This document shows positions 3,491-22,825 of a DNA stretch of 39,550 bases, piece by piece. The notes under the pieces are model-generated. The model did not search any database. It was given only the letters and a program-made list of their open reading frames with translations, and was not told where the DNA came from. The DNA lies in NCBI GenBank assembly GCA_038230415.1, contig JBBRNH010000052.1:1-39550 (forward strand), read 5' to 3'. Numbering within the stretch: the first letter of the stretch is position 1; each line of letters starts with the position of its first letter. Both the position numbers and the translations under genes were made by a program. The stretch is from Cytophagales bacterium. Lineage in GTDB: Bacteria; Bacteroidota; Bacteroidia; Cytophagales; Spirosomataceae.

Positions 3491-3530
3491 AAAAAACCGC
3501 TAACTCGTTGATAGTTAGCGGTTTTTGCTA
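3491..3530. terminator. bidirectional rho-independent terminator (9-bp stem ccgctaact/agttagcgg, loop cgttgat, flanked by an A-run and a T-run)
   Basis: The hairpin has T-tracts on both strands. On the minus strand it immediately follows the tRNA-Cys 3' end. Confidence 0.65.
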
Positions 3531-3760: not shown

Positions 3761-3832
3761 TTTGTCATTCCGACGCAAGGAGGAATCCATCTGCTTGGCA
3801 ACATAGATTCCTCCTTGCGTCGGAATGACAAA
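3761..3832. repeat. perfect 27-bp inverted repeat (tttgtcattccgacgcaaggaggaatc / gattcctccttgcgtcggaatgacaaa) with an 18-nt loop
   Basis: Arms 3761..3787 and 3806..3832 are exact reverse complements. The element lies 24 bp downstream of the rpsA stop and is a REP/terminator-like element. A weaker hairpin plus T-run at about 3710..3750 also lies on the minus strand. Confidence 0.8.
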
Positions 3833-7059: not shown

Positions 7060-7335
7060 AGTCACAGCCTCAAGACCTTCACTTAAAAACCAGTTCCGCC
7101 GGAGCGATGTAAACCCGGCTCGTTATTCACAGAAACGGATTGCTGATTTTTTAGCAAAAAGTATGCCCAACCCACGCCAACGTAGAGAAAGCAGGGGAAA
7201 TGACCCAAAAAAGTGGGTAAACCGAGTAATTCATTAAGCACGACAGGAACAGGGTAATCTTACAGATGAAGCCGCAATATTCGTACCAACACAACGAGAC
7301 GACTCAGATCGAGTCGTCTCGTTGTGTTTTGGAGT
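7060..7335 (+). ncRNA. candidate small RNA (unknown family) ending at a strong intrinsic terminator
   Basis: A TAATTTTG (-7-like) motif lies at 7048..7055. A perfect 18-bp hairpin at 7288..7328 is followed by gttttggagtttt. There is no convincing ORF; the only one is 83 aa, basic and low-complexity, at 6986..7237. I found no tmRNA, RNase P or SRP signatures. Confidence 0.2.
7288..7335 (+). terminator. rho-independent terminator (18-bp perfect stem aacacaacgagacgactc / gagtcgtctcgttgtgtt, loop agatc, then T-rich tail)
   Basis: Direct reading. The T-run is on the plus strand only. Confidence 0.6.
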
Positions 7336-7349
7336 TTTATATCGCTTCA

Positions 7350-7462
7350 TTACCACCCCCAACCCCCTCCTAAAACAGGAGGGGGCTTTCAAAAACCCTT
7401 TGGCTTTTTGCTCCGAAGGCGTAGCCCCCTCCTGTTTTAGGAGGGGGTTGGGGTGGTAGTAA
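7350..7462. repeat. complex ~110-bp palindromic intergenic element (family copy A): C5/G5 hairpins flanking a ccttYgg...ccgaagg core
   Basis: ttaccacccccaaccccctcctaaaacaggagggggc ... gccccctcctgttttaggagggggttggggtggtagtaa. Compare with 13211..13317. Confidence 0.75.
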
Positions 7463-13190: not shown

Positions 13191-13210
13191 TTATTTTTTA
13201 TTTCCTGAAC

Positions 13211-13317
13211 CGTCTCTTTACCCCCAGCCCCCTAAACAGGGGGCTTTTTAAAGCCTTCGGCTTTTGTTATCCCGAAGGTTTAGCCCCCTGCTTAGGGGGT
13301 TGGGGGTAAGGAGACGG
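13211..13317. repeat. complex palindromic intergenic element (family copy B), between convergent stop codons
   Basis: cgtctctttacccccagccccctaaacagggggc..agccttcggcttttg..cccgaagg..agccccctgcttagggggttgggggtaaggagacg. It has the same architecture as 7350..7462 at roughly 70-75% identity. Confidence 0.75.
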
Positions 13318-13334
13318 TTGGTAACTTTAACCAA

Positions 13335-16100: not shown

Positions 16101-16130
16101 GAGGGTATGATTCTCAACTCATCATATTAC

Positions 16131-19100
16131 TTACAATTTCTCCCGCAAAAACTCCGCCGTGTAACTCACGCCGTCGGGCAATTCAATCATGGCTTCGGGC
16201 GTGCCGGTGAAGGTGACGTAGCCGCCTTCGTCACCCCCTTCGCGGCCCAAGTCAATGATGTAGTCAGCGCATTTGATGACCTCTACGTTGTGTTCGATAA
16301 TAATCACCGAATCGCCCTGGTCAACCAGCGCGTTGATGGCTTTGAGCAGCACGCGGATGTCGTGGAAGTGCAGGCCGGTGGTCGGTTCGTCGAAGATAAA
16401 CAGCGTTTGGCCTTTATTTGGGTTGCCTTTGCCAAGGTACGACGCGAGCTTAACCCGTTGTGCCTCACCGCCCGACAGCGTGTTGGCCGATTGCCCCAGC
16501 CCGACGTAGCCCAGGCCGACTTCCTGCAAGGGCAGCAGTTTTTCGGCCATTTTGCGGTCGGCGATGGCGAAGAAATCAATGGCTTCGTCAACGGTCAGGG
16601 CCAGAATGTCGGAGACGTTTTTGCCGCCGAGCGTAACTTCCAGCGTTTCCTGCTTGAAACGTCGGCCCCCGCAGCCCTCGCATTTGAGGTAGATATCGGC
16701 CATAAACTGCATCTCGACTTTTACTTCGCCCTCGCCCTGGCAGATTTCGCAACGGCCACCGTCCACGTTAAACGAGAACTGACTCGGTTTGTAAGCCCTT
16801 GATTTCGAGAGCGGTTGCTCGCTCAGGGCTTGCCGCAGGTAGTCGTAGGCTTTGATGTAGGTAACGGGGTTTGAGCGGCTCGATTTACCAATCGGGTTTT
16901 GGTCAATCATTTCCACCGCAGCCACGCGCCCCACCGACCCGACGAGTTCAGAGAATTTACCGGCTTCTTCGCCGGGATTGCCTTTGAGCCGCGCCAGAGC
17001 CGGATACAGAATCTTTCTGACCAACGTACTCTTGCCCGACCCCGACACGCCGGTGATGACCGTGAGGGTGTTGAGGGGAAACTGCACGTCCACGTTTTTG
17101 AGGTTGTTTTCGTGTGCGCCCGTCACGCCAATCCAGTGCGTGGGTTTGCGCCGGAACGTCGGCACCGGAATCGTTTCGCGGCCCGTCAGAAAATCAAGCG
17201 TATGGCTTTTTAGTGATGAGTTAGACCGGGCTGGCGTTCCGGTGATGAGTGAAGAATATTCTTCTCTTGAGTATTCGTCACTCATCACCGGAACGCCGAC
17301 CTGGTCTAACTCATCATTGATTTTCCCCTGAAATACCAGTTTTCCGCCACCCAAACCGGCTTCGGGACCGATGTCAATGAGTTGGTCGGCGGCCCGCATC
17401 ACGTCTTCTTCGTGTTCAACCACAATCACGGTGTTACCCATGTCACGCAGAGATTCCAGCACACTGACCAACCGTTTGGTGTCTCGCGGATGCAGCCCAA
17501 TGCTCGGTTCATCCAAAATATACATCGAGCCGACAAGGGCCGAACCAAGCGAGGTAGCTAACTTAATTCGTTGATATTCACCACCCGACAGCGAGTTGGT
17601 GAGCCGATTCAGACTCAGATAGCCTAAGCCGACGCGCTCCATGTAGGCCAGCCGGTTGCGGATTTCGATCAGAATCCGGTCGGCGATTTTGCGTTTGTCG
17701 GCGGGCAGGTCAAGCGCATCAAAAAACCGAACCGCCGTTGAAATGGGCATCAGCACGAGGTCAGTGATCGAAACCCCGCCCACTTTCACGTAACCGGCAT
17801 CTTTCCGCAACCGCGAGCCGCGACAATCGGGACAGACGGTTTTGCCCCGATACCGCGACTGCATCACCCGGTATTGTACTTTGAAACTCTGGCTCTCGAC
17901 CCACTCAAAAAAACCGTTCAGGCCCGTAAAGTAGTCGTTGCCCGTCCAGAGAACGCTCTGTTCGGCGGGCGTAAGTTCTTTGTAGGGCCGGTGGATCGGG
18001 AAATCGAACCGGATACCGTTGCGAAGCAGTGGTTTCAGAAATTCGTCGCCCATTTTCTCACTCCGCCAGGGCATGATTGCGCCTTCAAAAACAGACAGGT
18101 TTTTGTCGGGAATCACCAGATCGGGGTCAATGCCGAGAACTTTGCCGAAGCCATCGCACCGGCGGCAGGCTCCGTAGGGGTTGTTGAAGGTAAACAGATT
18201 CACGCCCGGCTCTTCAAAGGTGATACCGTCCAGCTCGAATTTATCCGAGAAAACGCGGTCTTCATTCGGCACGTCGGCCCCGCGCACCAGCACCACCCGG
18301 CAGGTGCCGTTCCCCTCGCTGAAAGCCGTCTGCACCGAGTCAGAAAAGCGGTATTGGGTGTCTTCGTCGGGCTGCCCGGCATAATCGAACTGCACCGTTC
18401 CCCGGTCAATCAGTATTTCAAAAAGGGAGGAGAGGGAGAAAGGGGAAGAAGGAGACAAGGGGGAAGAAGGGAATGATCCAGCCCCTTTCCCCTTCTCCTC
18501 CCTTTTCTCCCTTTTGTCCCCTTCCTCCCCTTTCTCCCTTTCTAATTCTTCTTCAATCTCCCGCACCTCGCCCCCGGCAAGGATGCGGGTATAGCCTTTC
18601 TGAAGCAGGATTTTGAGTTCTACAGCCAGCGTGCGGCCTTCCTGAATCAGCAACGGGGCCAAAATCATGACGCGCTGATTGGCCCGGCTACCGAAAATAT
18701 AATTTACGACATCGGTAACGGTGTCTTTTTTGACAATACCACCCGACACCGGCGAGTACGTCACGCCCACCCGCGCAAAGAGCAGTTTGAGGTAATCATA
18801 AATTTCGGTGCTGGTGCCAACGGTGCTGCGCGGGTTGCGCGTGGAAACTTTCTGCTCGATGGCGATGGCGGGCGAAACACCTTTGATGTATTCGACATCG
18901 GGTTTTTCCATCCGGCCCAGAAACTGCCGGGCGTAGCTGCTCAGGCTCTCGACGTACATCCGCTGACCCTCGGCAAAGAGCGTATCAAACGCCAGCGATG
19001 ACTTTCCCGACCCCGATAAGCCACTGATTACGACTAACTTATTGCGCGGAATGGCAACATCTAAACTTTTGAGATTGTGAACATTAGCCCCCTTGATGAT

Positions 19101-19181
19101 GATATATTCTTTGGGGCTGAGCTGGTCAATTGTGCGAAGCGTTTCGATTTCGGCAGTCTGGTTCATGCAGTAGTTTGGCAA
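16131..19181 (-). CDS. uvrA: excinuclease ABC subunit A (UvrA), with two in-frame palindromic insertions
   Basis: It has two ABC ATPase modules with Walker A GVSGSGKSSL and GVSGSGKSTL. Cys-rich zinc modules CRRCDGFG and CPDCRGSRL are present. At 1016 aa it is about 80 aa longer than usual. Confidence 0.93.
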   Translation of the reverse strand: MPNYCMNQTAEIETLRTIDQLSPKEYIIIKGANVHNLKSLDVAIPRNKLVVISGLSGSGKSSLAFDTLFAEGQRMYVESLSSYARQFLGRMEKPDVEYIKGVSPAIAIEQKVSTRNPRSTVGTSTEIYDYLKLLFARVGVTYSPVSGGIVKKDTVTDVVNYIFGSRANQRVMILAPLLIQEGRTLAVELKILLQKGYTRILAGGEVREIEEELEREKGEEGDKREKREEKGKGAGSFPSSPLSPSSPFSLSSLFEILIDRGTVQFDYAGQPDEDTQYRFSDSVQTAFSEGNGTCRVVLVRGADVPNEDRVFSDKFELDGITFEEPGVNLFTFNNPYGACRRCDGFGKVLGIDPDLVIPDKNLSVFEGAIMPWRSEKMGDEFLKPLLRNGIRFDFPIHRPYKELTPAEQSVLWTGNDYFTGLNGFFEWVESQSFKVQYRVMQSRYRGKTVCPDCRGSRLRKDAGYVKVGGVSITDLVLMPISTAVRFFDALDLPADKRKIADRILIEIRNRLAYMERVGLGYLSLNRLTNSLSGGEYQRIKLATSLGSALVGSMYILDEPSIGLHPRDTKRLVSVLESLRDMGNTVIVVEHEEDVMRAADQLIDIGPEAGLGGGKLVFQGKINDELDQVGVPVMSDEYSREEYSSLITGTPARSNSSLKSHTLDFLTGRETIPVPTFRRKPTHWIGVTGAHENNLKNVDVQFPLNTLTVITGVSGSGKSTLVRKILYPALARLKGNPGEEAGKFSELVGSVGRVAAVEMIDQNPIGKSSRSNPVTYIKAYDYLRQALSEQPLSKSRAYKPSQFSFNVDGGRCEICQGEGEVKVEMQFMADIYLKCEGCGGRRFKQETLEVTLGGKNVSDILALTVDEAIDFFAIADRKMAEKLLPLQEVGLGYVGLGQSANTLSGGEAQRVKLASYLGKGNPNKGQTLFIFDEPTTGLHFHDIRVLLKAINALVDQGDSVIIIEHNVEVIKCADYIIDLGREGGDEGGYVTFTGTPEAMIELPDGVSYTAEFLREKL
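17214..17316. repeat. ~103-bp imperfect palindrome inside the uvrA coding sequence, in frame
   Basis: The right arm differs from the reverse complement of the left arm (tgatgagttagaccgggctggcgttccggtgatgagtgaagaatattc) at only a few positions. It encodes ..DELDQVGVPVMSDEYSREEYSSLITGTP... in UvrA. The opposite strand (ORF 16978..17331) encodes the near-identical DELDRAGVPVMSEEYSSLEYSSLITGTP. Confidence 0.8.
18419..18541. repeat. homopurine/homopyrimidine mirror-palindromic tract inside the uvrA coding sequence, in frame
   Basis: 54 nt are almost all purine (aaaaagggaggagagggagaaaggggaagaagg...). A short centre is followed by about 59 nt almost all pyrimidine, approximately the reverse complement. 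It encodes the low-complexity EIEEELEREKGEEGDKREKREEKGKG-AGS-FPSSPLSPSSPFSLSS. Confidence 0.75.
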
Positions 19182-19296: not shown

Positions 19297-19941
19297 ATGC
19301 AACTCGTTCATAAATTGTTTTTAGTAGCTGCCCTCTTAACCGGCAGCCACGCTTTTGCTCAGATCACCGCCGACCCCGAAGACCGCGACCGGCGCGAGCA
19401 GGGAAAAGACCCGCTTCGCACTCAAACGCCCGAAGGTCGCCCGTTGCCGTTTTTGCAACGGCTCCGTTTCGGCGGGGGCGTTAGTGGGTTGCGGTTTGGG
19501 AATCCAACCATAATCGGGGTATCGCCGGTGGTGGCGTATCAGGCTTCGGAGCGGCTTATTTTGGGGCTGGGTGCATCCTATACCTACTCGCGGTACAAGG
19601 CCATTGACCGGACTACGGGCCGCACGGTTCCCTATGAAACTTACAATCAATATGGCGGGCGCGGGTTTGTGATGTACGAAGCCGTGCCATCGCTGATACC
19701 GAATCTGTACCTGCACGGCGAACTCGAAAGCACCAGTATTCAGTATAGAAACAACATCAGCAATGCCACTGCATCTTTGGGCAGCATTACGGCTCCGTTG
19801 GTGGGCCTGACCTATTCGCAGCGCATCGGGCGGTTGGCGGGCATCAACCTAACGGCTCTCTACAACCTGAATTACAGCAGCAATCAGGTGTCACAATACG
19901 TATATGGTAGCCCGCTCGTGATTCGTATTTCGTTTTTCTAA
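19297..19941 (+). CDS. putative outer-membrane beta-barrel protein (signal peptide, C-terminal Phe)
   Basis: 214 aa. N-terminal signal LFLVAALLTGSHAFAQ. It has alternating-hydrophobic strands and a terminal ...RISFF. No named family is recognised. Confidence 0.45.
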   Translation: MQLVHKLFLVAALLTGSHAFAQITADPEDRDRREQGKDPLRTQTPEGRPLPFLQRLRFGGGVSGLRFGNPTIIGVSPVVAYQASERLILGLGASYTYSRYKAIDRTTGRTVPYETYNQYGGRGFVMYEAVPSLIPNLYLHGELESTSIQYRNNISNATASLGSITAPLVGLTYSQRIGRLAGINLTALYNLNYSSNQVSQYVYGSPLVIRISFF

Positions 19942-20058
19942 ACTATTGGAACGCAGATGACGCAGATTTTATGATTTACGCGGATTTCTATTTCTCCGTC
20001 AGCACTAAAAAAATCTGTGTAGATCATAAAAATCTGCGTCATCCGCGTTCCAATAGTT
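19941..20058. repeat. MITE-like element with 35-bp terminal inverted repeats (aactattggaacgcagatgacgcagattttatgat), filling the gap between two convergent stop codons
   Basis: Left TIR 19941..19975 and right TIR 20023..20058 are reverse complements with 2-3 mismatches. The core is about 48 bp. Confidence 0.7.
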
Positions 20059-22712: not shown

Positions 22713-22720
22713 TTTTTTTC

Positions 22721-22804
22721 GCGCAAAGACGCAGAGACGCAAAGTCTTTGGGTTGTGTTTTTAAATACCTTAGAAATAGACTTTTGCGCCTTCGCGTCTT
22801 TGCG
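22721..22804. repeat. nested imperfect hairpin (gcgcaaagacgc...gcgtctttgcg, inner acgcaaagtct...agacttttgcg) between the MBOAT stop and the AlgJ-like start
   Basis: Direct reading. It is preceded by the T7 run at 22713..22720. Possible terminator, attenuator or REP-like element. Confidence 0.5.
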
Positions 22805-22825
22805 TGACACCTTTTTTCTTCTTTT

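Follow-up and report, generated by a model that had tools for sequence, protein, structure and literature searches.

How does a long palindrome come to be read in frame inside a conserved repair gene, and does it behave like a mobile element? The question is raised by a 39,550-nucleotide stretch of DNA (hereafter the window; contig JBBRNH010000052.1 of assembly GCA_038230415.1) from a Cytophagales bacterium of the family Spirosomataceae, where a palindromic insert of 103–107 bp lies within uvrA, the gene for excinuclease ABC subunit A. An earlier note on this DNA had read the insert as a palindromic mobile element of the Rickettsia type, tolerated as a surface loop. We find a palindrome that is in frame, that occupies a hypervariable hot spot, that shares its termini and core with elements elsewhere, and whose relatives display a pattern of stop-codon avoidance. 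We consider it probable (roughly 0.6) that this hairpin repeat is selfish or neutral, that it was copied into a linker of UvrA that tolerates insertions, and that it is translated there as a disordered loop and turns over rapidly.

A palindrome in the reading frame of uvrA

The position of the palindrome in uvrA is referred to here as site A. Its host gene and its parts are as follows:

16131–19166, minus strand: uvrA (excinuclease ABC subunit A), 1011 amino acids (aa), recognized from its open reading frame (ORF) and translation, host of both palindromes described in this text; the product is identical to P0001
17212–17318, minus strand: whole palindromic insert, site A, encoding UvrA N617–L652 (NDELDQVGVPVMSDEYSREEYSSLITGTPARSNSSL)
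17214–17261: arm 1, which on the sense strand codes for the insert's C-terminal half
17262–17268: central spacer (loop), 7 nt
17269–17316: arm 2, which on the sense strand codes for the insert's N-terminal half
17212–17224, plus strand: terminal 13-mer AGTGATGAGTTAG, with its inverted partner AATGATGAGTTAG (minus strand) at 17306–17318
17233–17252, plus strand: 20-nt arm core GGCGTTCCGGTGATGAGTGA, with an inverted copy at 17278–17297

The inverted repeat at 17214–17316 consists of 48-nt arms that are 90% complementary (5 mismatches per 48) and separated by the 7-nt spacer. Its predicted RNA fold reaches −77.6 kcal/mol, compared with −27.3 ± 3.2 kcal/mol for 200 dinucleotide-preserving shuffles (z = −15.7), none of which folded as well (0/200). 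The uvrA ORF is unbroken across the palindrome. Each strand has a single open frame through it, the other two frames per strand being interrupted by stop codons, and these open frames yield KINDELDQVGVPVMSDEYSREEYSSLITGTPARSNSSLKS in sense and LFSDELDRAGVPVMSEEYSSLEYSSLITGTPTWSNSSLIF in antisense, reproducing the peptides quoted in the earlier note. That note took the resemblance between the two peptides as a hallmark of mobility, but near-identical peptides on both strands are an automatic result of palindromic DNA and carry no separate information. What is informative is the absence of stop codons from the host frame through both arms.

The UvrA protein encoded in the window shares 74–88% identity with UvrA of other Spirosomataceae, the nearest named genera being Fibrella and Spirosoma, and matches T. 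maritima UvrA (3pih) at E = 8e-250. In alignments to the solved structures 3pih and 2r6f, the insert falls between conserved blocks, where the first ABC half ends and immediately ahead of the conserved LTGxxLSG segment, the lead-in to the second half. T. maritima UvrA reads …GTVDELLK / NPDSSLTGEYLSGK… at this point, with a gap of about 25 residues opposite the insert. On the published B. stearothermophilus domain map, site A would correspond to the linker between the two halves and site B, where the second palindrome lies, to part of the UvrB-binding domain. An AlphaFold (AF2) model built from 32 orthologs, moderate in quality (mean pLDDT 61.7) and too weak for fold searches, renders residues 624–652 and 215–247 as coil with pLDDT < 50 between better-modelled elements. 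The alignment gap and this low-confidence coil point to a surface position that the UvrA fold can accommodate, and the insert is predicted to form a disordered loop of about 36 residues.

The suggestion that insertions account for the unusual length of this UvrA is borne out. Full-length chains of solved structures have 916–993 aa and Spirosoma rhododendri UvrA has 959 aa, against 1011 aa in the window, and 47 of the 52 residues in excess of S. rhododendri belong to the two variable sites, A and B.

Antisense ORFs of 104–231 aa also occur within uvrA, all on the plus strand (16978–17331, 16899–17213 and 16107–16802). The one over the palindrome owes its existence to the open mirrored frame. 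These ORFs are probably not genes and could be mis-annotated as such.

A hot spot of different hairpins and their relatives elsewhere

Comparison with orthologs did not reveal the clean insertion for which the earlier note proposed to look. The linker is hypervariable throughout the 120 Spirosomataceae orthologs compared; the site-A segment, from FQG to SHTLDFLTG, ranges from 18 to 227 aa among 118 orthologs (median 32, window 40) and is unalignable. Many orthologs contain pairs of peptides of the kind typical for translated hairpins (SDEL…HSSLITHHSSL, SEELRVKSEE…SSLFTLHSSL, NEELRIKN…FLILNSSF), and one and the same type of pair may occupy site A or site B, depending on the species. Three genomes with approximately 90% identical flanks, namely the window and the relatives L008 and L009, carry three different hairpins at one junction, each bounded by AGTGA…TCACT (slashes mark the edges of the element):

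window: …AAAATC / AATGATGAGTTAG…CTAACTCATCACT / AAAAAGC…
L008: …AAAATC / AGTGACCAGTTATCAGTGACC…GGTCACTGGCCACT / AAAAAGC…
L009: …TTTTG / AGTGAAGAATTAAGAGTGAAG…CTTCACTCTTCACT / CAAAAGC…

Across nine genomes, the site-A fold has a z-score between −5.5 and −15 in six and is half-decayed in two. S. rhododendri has a 20-aa linker without a hairpin (z = −0.9), and its site B is bare as well. Site A is a hot spot with a different hairpin in nearly every relative rather than the location of a single clean insertion. The hairpin-free linker of S. rhododendri and the gap in T. maritima support the reading of a lineage-specific insert in a flexible linker.

The arms of the L008 and L009 hairpins are built of tandem 7-nt units (AGTGAnn heptamers), with lag-7 autocorrelations of 0.58 and 0.70, respectively, versus 0.31 for the window element. 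Every frame of a tandem AGTGAnn array is interrupted by stop codons. Arrays of the complementary nnTCACT have no stop in any frame, and their translations are exactly the right-arm peptides HHSSLIT, LHSSLFT and GHWSLVT. In all left arms examined, the second unit reads AGTTA instead of AGTGA, so that TGA becomes TTA (Leu), giving SDEL, SEEL or SDQL. Left arms with AGTTA and right arms with unaltered nnTCACT arrays would both be expected if only versions free of stops in the host frame survive. This asymmetry between the arms is good evidence for inserts that are translated and filtered by selection against stop codons.

The same gene harbors a second in-frame palindrome at site B:

18421–18542, minus strand: second palindrome, uvrA site B (inverted repeats I2/I6), encoding about EREKGEEGDKREKREEKGKGAGSFPSSPLSPSSPFSLSSLF (…EKGEEGDKREKREEKGKGAGSFPSSPLSPSSPFSLSSLF…)

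It pairs a purine-rich with a pyrimidine-rich arm (47 nt, 79% complementary), and the segment folds at −85 kcal/mol (z = −7.9). Site B, at about residues 196–250 of the window protein, is likewise hypervariable, with 25–55 aa in orthologs, and one of the window's site-B arms matches site B of the relative L010 at 39 of 46 positions. A third variable site, at about residue 462, is empty in the window and holds insertions in some Spirosomataceae orthologs. In Prosthecobacter (Verrucomicrobiota), this third site contains a hairpin of AAGTTTC heptamers (…SSKFQVSSFKLD…NLKLETSNLKP…; L014 5895–5976 and L024 2774–2837).

Four orthologous site-A elements from the Fibrella/Fibrivirga clade, where genes are about 83% identical, show how such hairpins change. 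Three of them have arms that are 89–95% identical and loops that are 44–60% identical and differ by indels. In the fourth (L039), 7 of the changes across 22 pairs are disruptive, 2 are compensatory and 1 is a wobble. Arms thus persist for a while and later erode; their persistence may reflect templated correction, a recent shared origin or a constraint of some kind. Strict structural maintenance of the hairpin, as would be seen in a conserved functional structure, is unsupported, given the decay in L039.

Evidence for copying comes from elements that share sequence across sites and genomes. In one relative (L011, a 5.6-Mb contig), sites A and B, 1.1 kb apart, hold near-identical 71-nt elements, with 45 of the first 46 nt the same and with termini identical to those of the window element. 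An arm of the window element matches site A of L010 at 39 of 45 positions, including 29 of 30 through the core (the 20-nt core plus 10 flanking nt). The two genes are only 75% identical, and the two closest relatives of the window lack the core. Local recombination between the window and L010 lineages was excluded as the source of the shared core, since identity is not raised in the flanks. A looser relative of the core occurs in L011 (GTPVRMSDE), and its orientation is one way there, the opposite way in L010 (SSLITGTP) and both ways in the window. Separately, GGCGTTCCGGTGATGAGTGA matches once each in seven proteobacterial contigs, L001–L007 (Massilia, Variovorax, Oxalobacteraceae, Acetobacteraceae), where about one match was expected; these probably reflect some conserved stretch of a gene that has nothing to do with the element, or chance.

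A metagenome scan for the termini placed 31–91 nt apart returned 23 loci, compared with about 2 expected by chance. Most are unrelated hairpins, and six are clearly family-like, five of them independent (L014 and L024 are orthologous). Two of the six lie in frame in uvrA of Prosthecobacter, one in tsaD (L021), and three in intergenic DNA (L020, L023, L032). The termini AGTGATGAGTTAG / CTAACTCATCACT are common to the elements of L011, L021, L020, L023, L014 and L024, with the qualification that the metagenome search pattern itself demanded them. The tsaD element and the intergenic element of L023, downstream of an htpX-like gene, are about 90% identical over 74 nt. The former (L021 3124–3193; 74 nt, termini AGTGATGAGTTAGGAGTGATGAGTGATGAA…) reads in frame as …STSDELGVMSDEFRTPDSSLITPNSSF… in a genome of about 60% GC. 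The remaining loci were set aside because they merely contain the 11-mer (L013, L025, L031, L033 and L034, which represent one locus; L012, L015–L019, L022 and L026–L030). Elements with the same termini or core at other places indicate that the uvrA insert behaves like the protein-coding palindromes of Rickettsia.

Hairpins are also common in the intergenic DNA of Spirosomataceae loci, and many are heptamer-built with units particular to the locus (GTCATTG, AGTTGTA, GATGTAT, AAGTTGT). Arms of 3–5 imperfect tandem 7-nt units were found at L009 5648–5718, L011 518–617, L035 18755–18832 and L037 19420–19521, among others, which suggests a general process that generates heptamer hairpins in these genomes. 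A distinct and true repeat family is formed by nested palindromes of the type CCCC(C)T…AAACAGGGGGCT / AGCCCCCTGTTT…GGGG, found at window positions 7357–7453 and 13208–13319 and in relatives (L008 1–65 and 4482–4589; L038 13260–13400), never within genes. Further strong intergenic hairpins in the window (3761–3832, 19941–20058, 22719–22807, 3492–3526 and 7288–7328), with arms of 14–30 nt such as TTTGTCATTCCGACGCAAGGAGGAATC and AACTATTGGAACGCAGATGACGCAGATTTT, are probably terminators or members of other repeat families. The ACGAGACGAC stem at 7288–7328 resembles a stem at L009 1114–1176.

Likeness to known repeats

Rickettsia palindromic elements (RPEs; Ogata et al. 2000, 2002), as defined in PMC1779305 and PMC10969869, are among the closest known counterparts. 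As with RPEs, the window element is a palindromic repeat of about 100 bp lying in frame in a conserved housekeeping gene, with one open frame that continues the host ORF (and the stop-avoidance pattern described above), forming an extra surface segment and having related copies both within and between genes. RPEs are interspersed repeats of 100–150 bp that abound in the coding and the intergenic DNA of one genome; here, the 39.5-kb window holds no second copy, and related copies lie in other genomes. The host is a free-living member of the Bacteroidota rather than of the Rickettsiales, its palindrome comes much closer to perfection than that of a typical RPE, and the termini and the arms of relatives are built from 7-nt units. 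RPEs are many scattered and stable insertions, whereas uvrA presents a hot spot of fast turnover. The earlier comparison with RPEs therefore stands as a description of behavior (in-frame position, termini and core shared elsewhere), while actual membership is unsupported, given the different phylum and a peptide profile search that returned no relatives.

A second comparison is with repetitive extragenic palindromes (REPs) tagged by GTAG or CGTC, and with their dimers, which form inserts of 7–50 residues in repair genes (Di Nocera et al. 2013, PMC3733652). Two REP inserts were reported in uvrA of Opitutus terrae (Oter_3168; residues 224–239 and 440–462 of 999) and two in uvrA of Thioalkalivibrio; REP-tagged repair genes are often the sole REP-tagged ORFs of their genome, which the authors judged non-fortuitous (PMC3733652). 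Both systems place short palindromic units or inverted dimers inside ORFs and favor uvrA and other repair genes. The O. terrae inserts lie near site B and the third site by residue number only, and the O. terrae GTAG-19 peptides (GTGVPPV / TGGTPVP) resemble the GVPV / TGTP peptides of the core. These peptides, and the site-B copy of L011, which reads GTAG-CCGGTACGCCGG, prompted us to consider a REP dimer, a reading that is unsupported for the window element. The latter has no terminal GTAG or CGTC: GTTAG stands next to a CCGG stem, and the sole CGTC is internal and confined to one arm. REP units are themselves stem-loops of 20–40 bp with stems of 5–13 bp, often paired as inverted dimers. Each arm of the window element has a 4–5-bp CCGG…CCGG stem and by itself folds at only −6 to −9 kcal/mol, and alone the arms are weak and unconvincing as stem-loops. 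The outer parts of the element are, in addition, heptamer-derived. REPs number from tens to thousands per genome, mostly between genes, and are associated with a RAYT transposase; a search for dispersed copies of the core motifs outside uvrA in about 190 kb of family DNA found one chance-level 10-mer match (L010 6033–6042). It is possible that a REP-like unit is nested within a heptamer hairpin.

Heptanucleotide tandem repeats (STRR-type, TAACTGA) have a patchy distribution across phyla that includes cyanobacteria, Beggiatoaceae and some Bacteroidetes (PMC4679880). They are mostly intergenic direct repeats, often just upstream of start codons, and stop codons limit the orientation in which they enter genes (PMC4679880). 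Tandem 7-nt units are the point of likeness, and TAACTGA compares with TAACTCA in the right arm of the window element. The present units differ in forming inverted hairpin arms within coding sequence, and the window element itself lacks tandem periodicity (0.31), its core being non-heptameric and only its two terminal units heptamer-like. No description of heptamer-built in-frame hairpins in Cytophagales was found in the searchable literature.

Bacterial MITEs (miniature transposable elements with inverted repeats) such as ERIC/RU are also found within genes (PMC2759123, PMC3184786). They share with the uvrA family a small size, non-autonomy, inverted termini common to the copies and occasional in-frame fusion with host ORFs. 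They differ in that we found no target-site duplication and no known related insertion sequence, and in that the window element is essentially one continuous hairpin rather than a unique core between inverted termini. The window flanks read …AAAATC / element / AAAAAGC…, and the flanks of other copies are dissimilar and without direct repeats.

Origin of the insert and its meaning

We hypothesize that a hairpin-forming repeat of 103–107 bp settled, in frame, in the flexible linker between the ABC-ATPase halves of UvrA, where it would be translated as part of the protein surface. It would belong to a loose family of palindromic elements with ends of AGTGATG plus AGTTAGN, inverted at the other end, and with arms that in relatives are tandem AGTGAnn heptamers. 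Members of this family may be copied into and between permissive UvrA loops (sites A and B and the third site), with other genes and intergenic DNA as occasional targets. Fast change would follow by unit slippage, palindrome-templated correction, internal insertion and decay, with survival restricted to versions that are stop-free in the host frame. We infer that the window element arrived by copying rather than by growth in place, that it is itself mobile, and that it is neutral or selfish in nature; as to its route of mobilisation, neither a target duplication nor a transposase was seen.

Several observations weigh against this hypothesis. The window element has no 7-nt periodicity beyond its two terminal units, AGTGATG and AGTTAGA. 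The 26-mer proposed in the earlier note has no second copy within the window, and the further copies of ccggtgatgagtgaagaatattcttc for which that note proposed to search were found neither there nor among 185,579 species-representative genomes (GTDB) or 72,556 plasmids, and the 20-nt arm core likewise gave no further copy beyond the seven single proteobacterial matches; the genome set excludes the window's own genome, and the 20-nt core is absent from the Spirosomataceae in it. The plasmids gave no match to either the window or the L011 element. An exhaustive HMMER search with a peptide profile against 1.84 billion protein representatives, which were clustered at 50% identity and may hide inserts, gave two weak multi-stretch matches, probably to low-complexity proteins. 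A word-indexed search of a 5.8-billion-protein index with a 40-aa query missed the host protein itself and is uninformative. Neither the window element nor the copies in its relatives have a target-site duplication or a consistent target sequence. The units of the closest relatives (AGTGATG, AGTGAAG, AGTGACC) are only 1–2 nt apart, so in-place turnover could explain part of the diversity without mobility. The common 13-nt termini are partly forced by the heptamer and by stop avoidance, and in the metagenome loci they are present by construction of the search. Finally, neutral insertion leaves the concentration of hairpins in uvrA, described below, unexplained.

Much of this would be accommodated by a purely local origin, the main rival reading, which we consider unlikely, though by no means far-fetched. 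Here, an old heptamer microsatellite in the linker would regenerate hairpins whenever replication slips or the template switches within a strand (quasi-palindrome correction). Nothing would be mobile, and likeness across sites and genomes would reflect convergence or ectopic gene conversion within uvrA. The close similarity of units among near relatives, the lack of extra copies of the window core in the window, species representatives, plasmids and protein representatives, and the better conservation of arms than of loops or gene in the Fibrella clade are all consistent with this. So is the observation that all site-A hairpins begin and end at one junction, with a conserved right flank of TCACT / AAAAAGC, and each intergenic hairpin has its own heptamer unit, suggesting a process rather than a master copy. 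However, the window core is not heptameric, is shared at 29 of 30 positions with a gene only 75% identical, and is missing from the two closest relatives. Near-identical elements also occur in unrelated contexts (tsaD versus intergenic DNA, and sites A and B), and S. rhododendri and its relatives keep stable linkers free of hairpins.

The distribution of hairpins raises the alternative of a functional element, in which the hairpin (as RNA or DNA cruciform) regulates uvrA or the loop adaptively modifies UvrA, with effects on repair or mutation rate. Nine Spirosomataceae loci have at least 9 strong hairpins in nine uvrA genes (27 kb) and none in about 130 kb of other coding DNA (~150 genes), a contrast that is still large even though every locus was chosen for carrying uvrA. 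The same concentration is seen in two Prosthecobacter loci, whose uvrA genes each carry a linker hairpin and a further hairpin, of AAGTTTC units, at the third site. The REP inserts in uvrA of Opitutus and Thioalkalivibrio, judged non-fortuitous (PMC3733652), and functional tuning speculated for REP-tagged repair genes point the same way, as does arm conservation above the gene average in three Fibrella-clade genomes. Against this, sequence, length and presence vary freely, some species lack hairpins at both sites, the L039 hairpin has more disruptive than compensatory changes (7 vs 2), and the inserted peptides are low-complexity and predicted to be disordered. An intrinsic terminator was dropped as a reading: the hairpin lacks a T-run, and a terminator scan flagged neither uvrA hairpin. 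A known RNA family was dropped as well, as Rfam gave only sub-gathering matches to generic microRNA hairpin models (e.g., 48 bits vs 85). We regard a functional role as improbable, although the unexplained concentration in uvrA keeps it in contention. An assembly or sequencing artefact, with a chimeric fold-back read built into the gene, is scarcely credible. Amplification or fold-back can yield long palindromes, and the assembly behind the contig is a draft or of metagenome type, but the palindrome is imperfect, preserves a stop-free frame, and is bordered by intact conserved UvrA sequence on both sides. Eight independent assemblies, complete genomes among them, have analogous hairpins at this junction, which argues against an artefact as well.

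The copied hairpin repeat that we favor is of a known kind. Intragenic palindromes concentrated in uvrA have already been reported (PMC3733652), and no new system is involved. A broader idea, which we offer as speculative and rather improbable, is that uvrA, and perhaps nucleotide-excision-repair genes generally, are a recurrent preferred host of in-frame palindromes across unrelated phyla, mechanistically linked to the recognition of distorted DNA. The cases in question are those of Spirosomataceae and Prosthecobacter described here, together with the published ones of Opitutus, Thioalkalivibrio and Rickettsia (uvrB/uvrC), and they may involve the same two or three loops. If this were true, inserts might adjust UvrA in a way that lets hairpin repeats be tolerated or propagated more readily; alternatively, the uvrA locus itself might have a specific propensity for hairpin-templated insertion.

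When palindromes that code for protein were first described, they were held to be "unique" to Rickettsia, and REP inserts were later found in a few genomes. Our results add the free-living Bacteroidota (Spirosomataceae) and Prosthecobacter to their hosts, and the architecture differs in its heptamer-derived arms and nested core. They also give independent support to the published and unexplained observation that repair genes, chiefly uvrA, are favored as hosts. In practical terms, the inserts explain length variation in UvrA and could mislead annotation (through antisense ORFs), alignment and primer design. For the Spirosomataceae, dozens of orthologous uvrA genes with fresh, intermediate, decayed or absent hairpins at one junction constitute a natural time series, which serves the study of how such inserts originate, are purged of stop codons, and erode.

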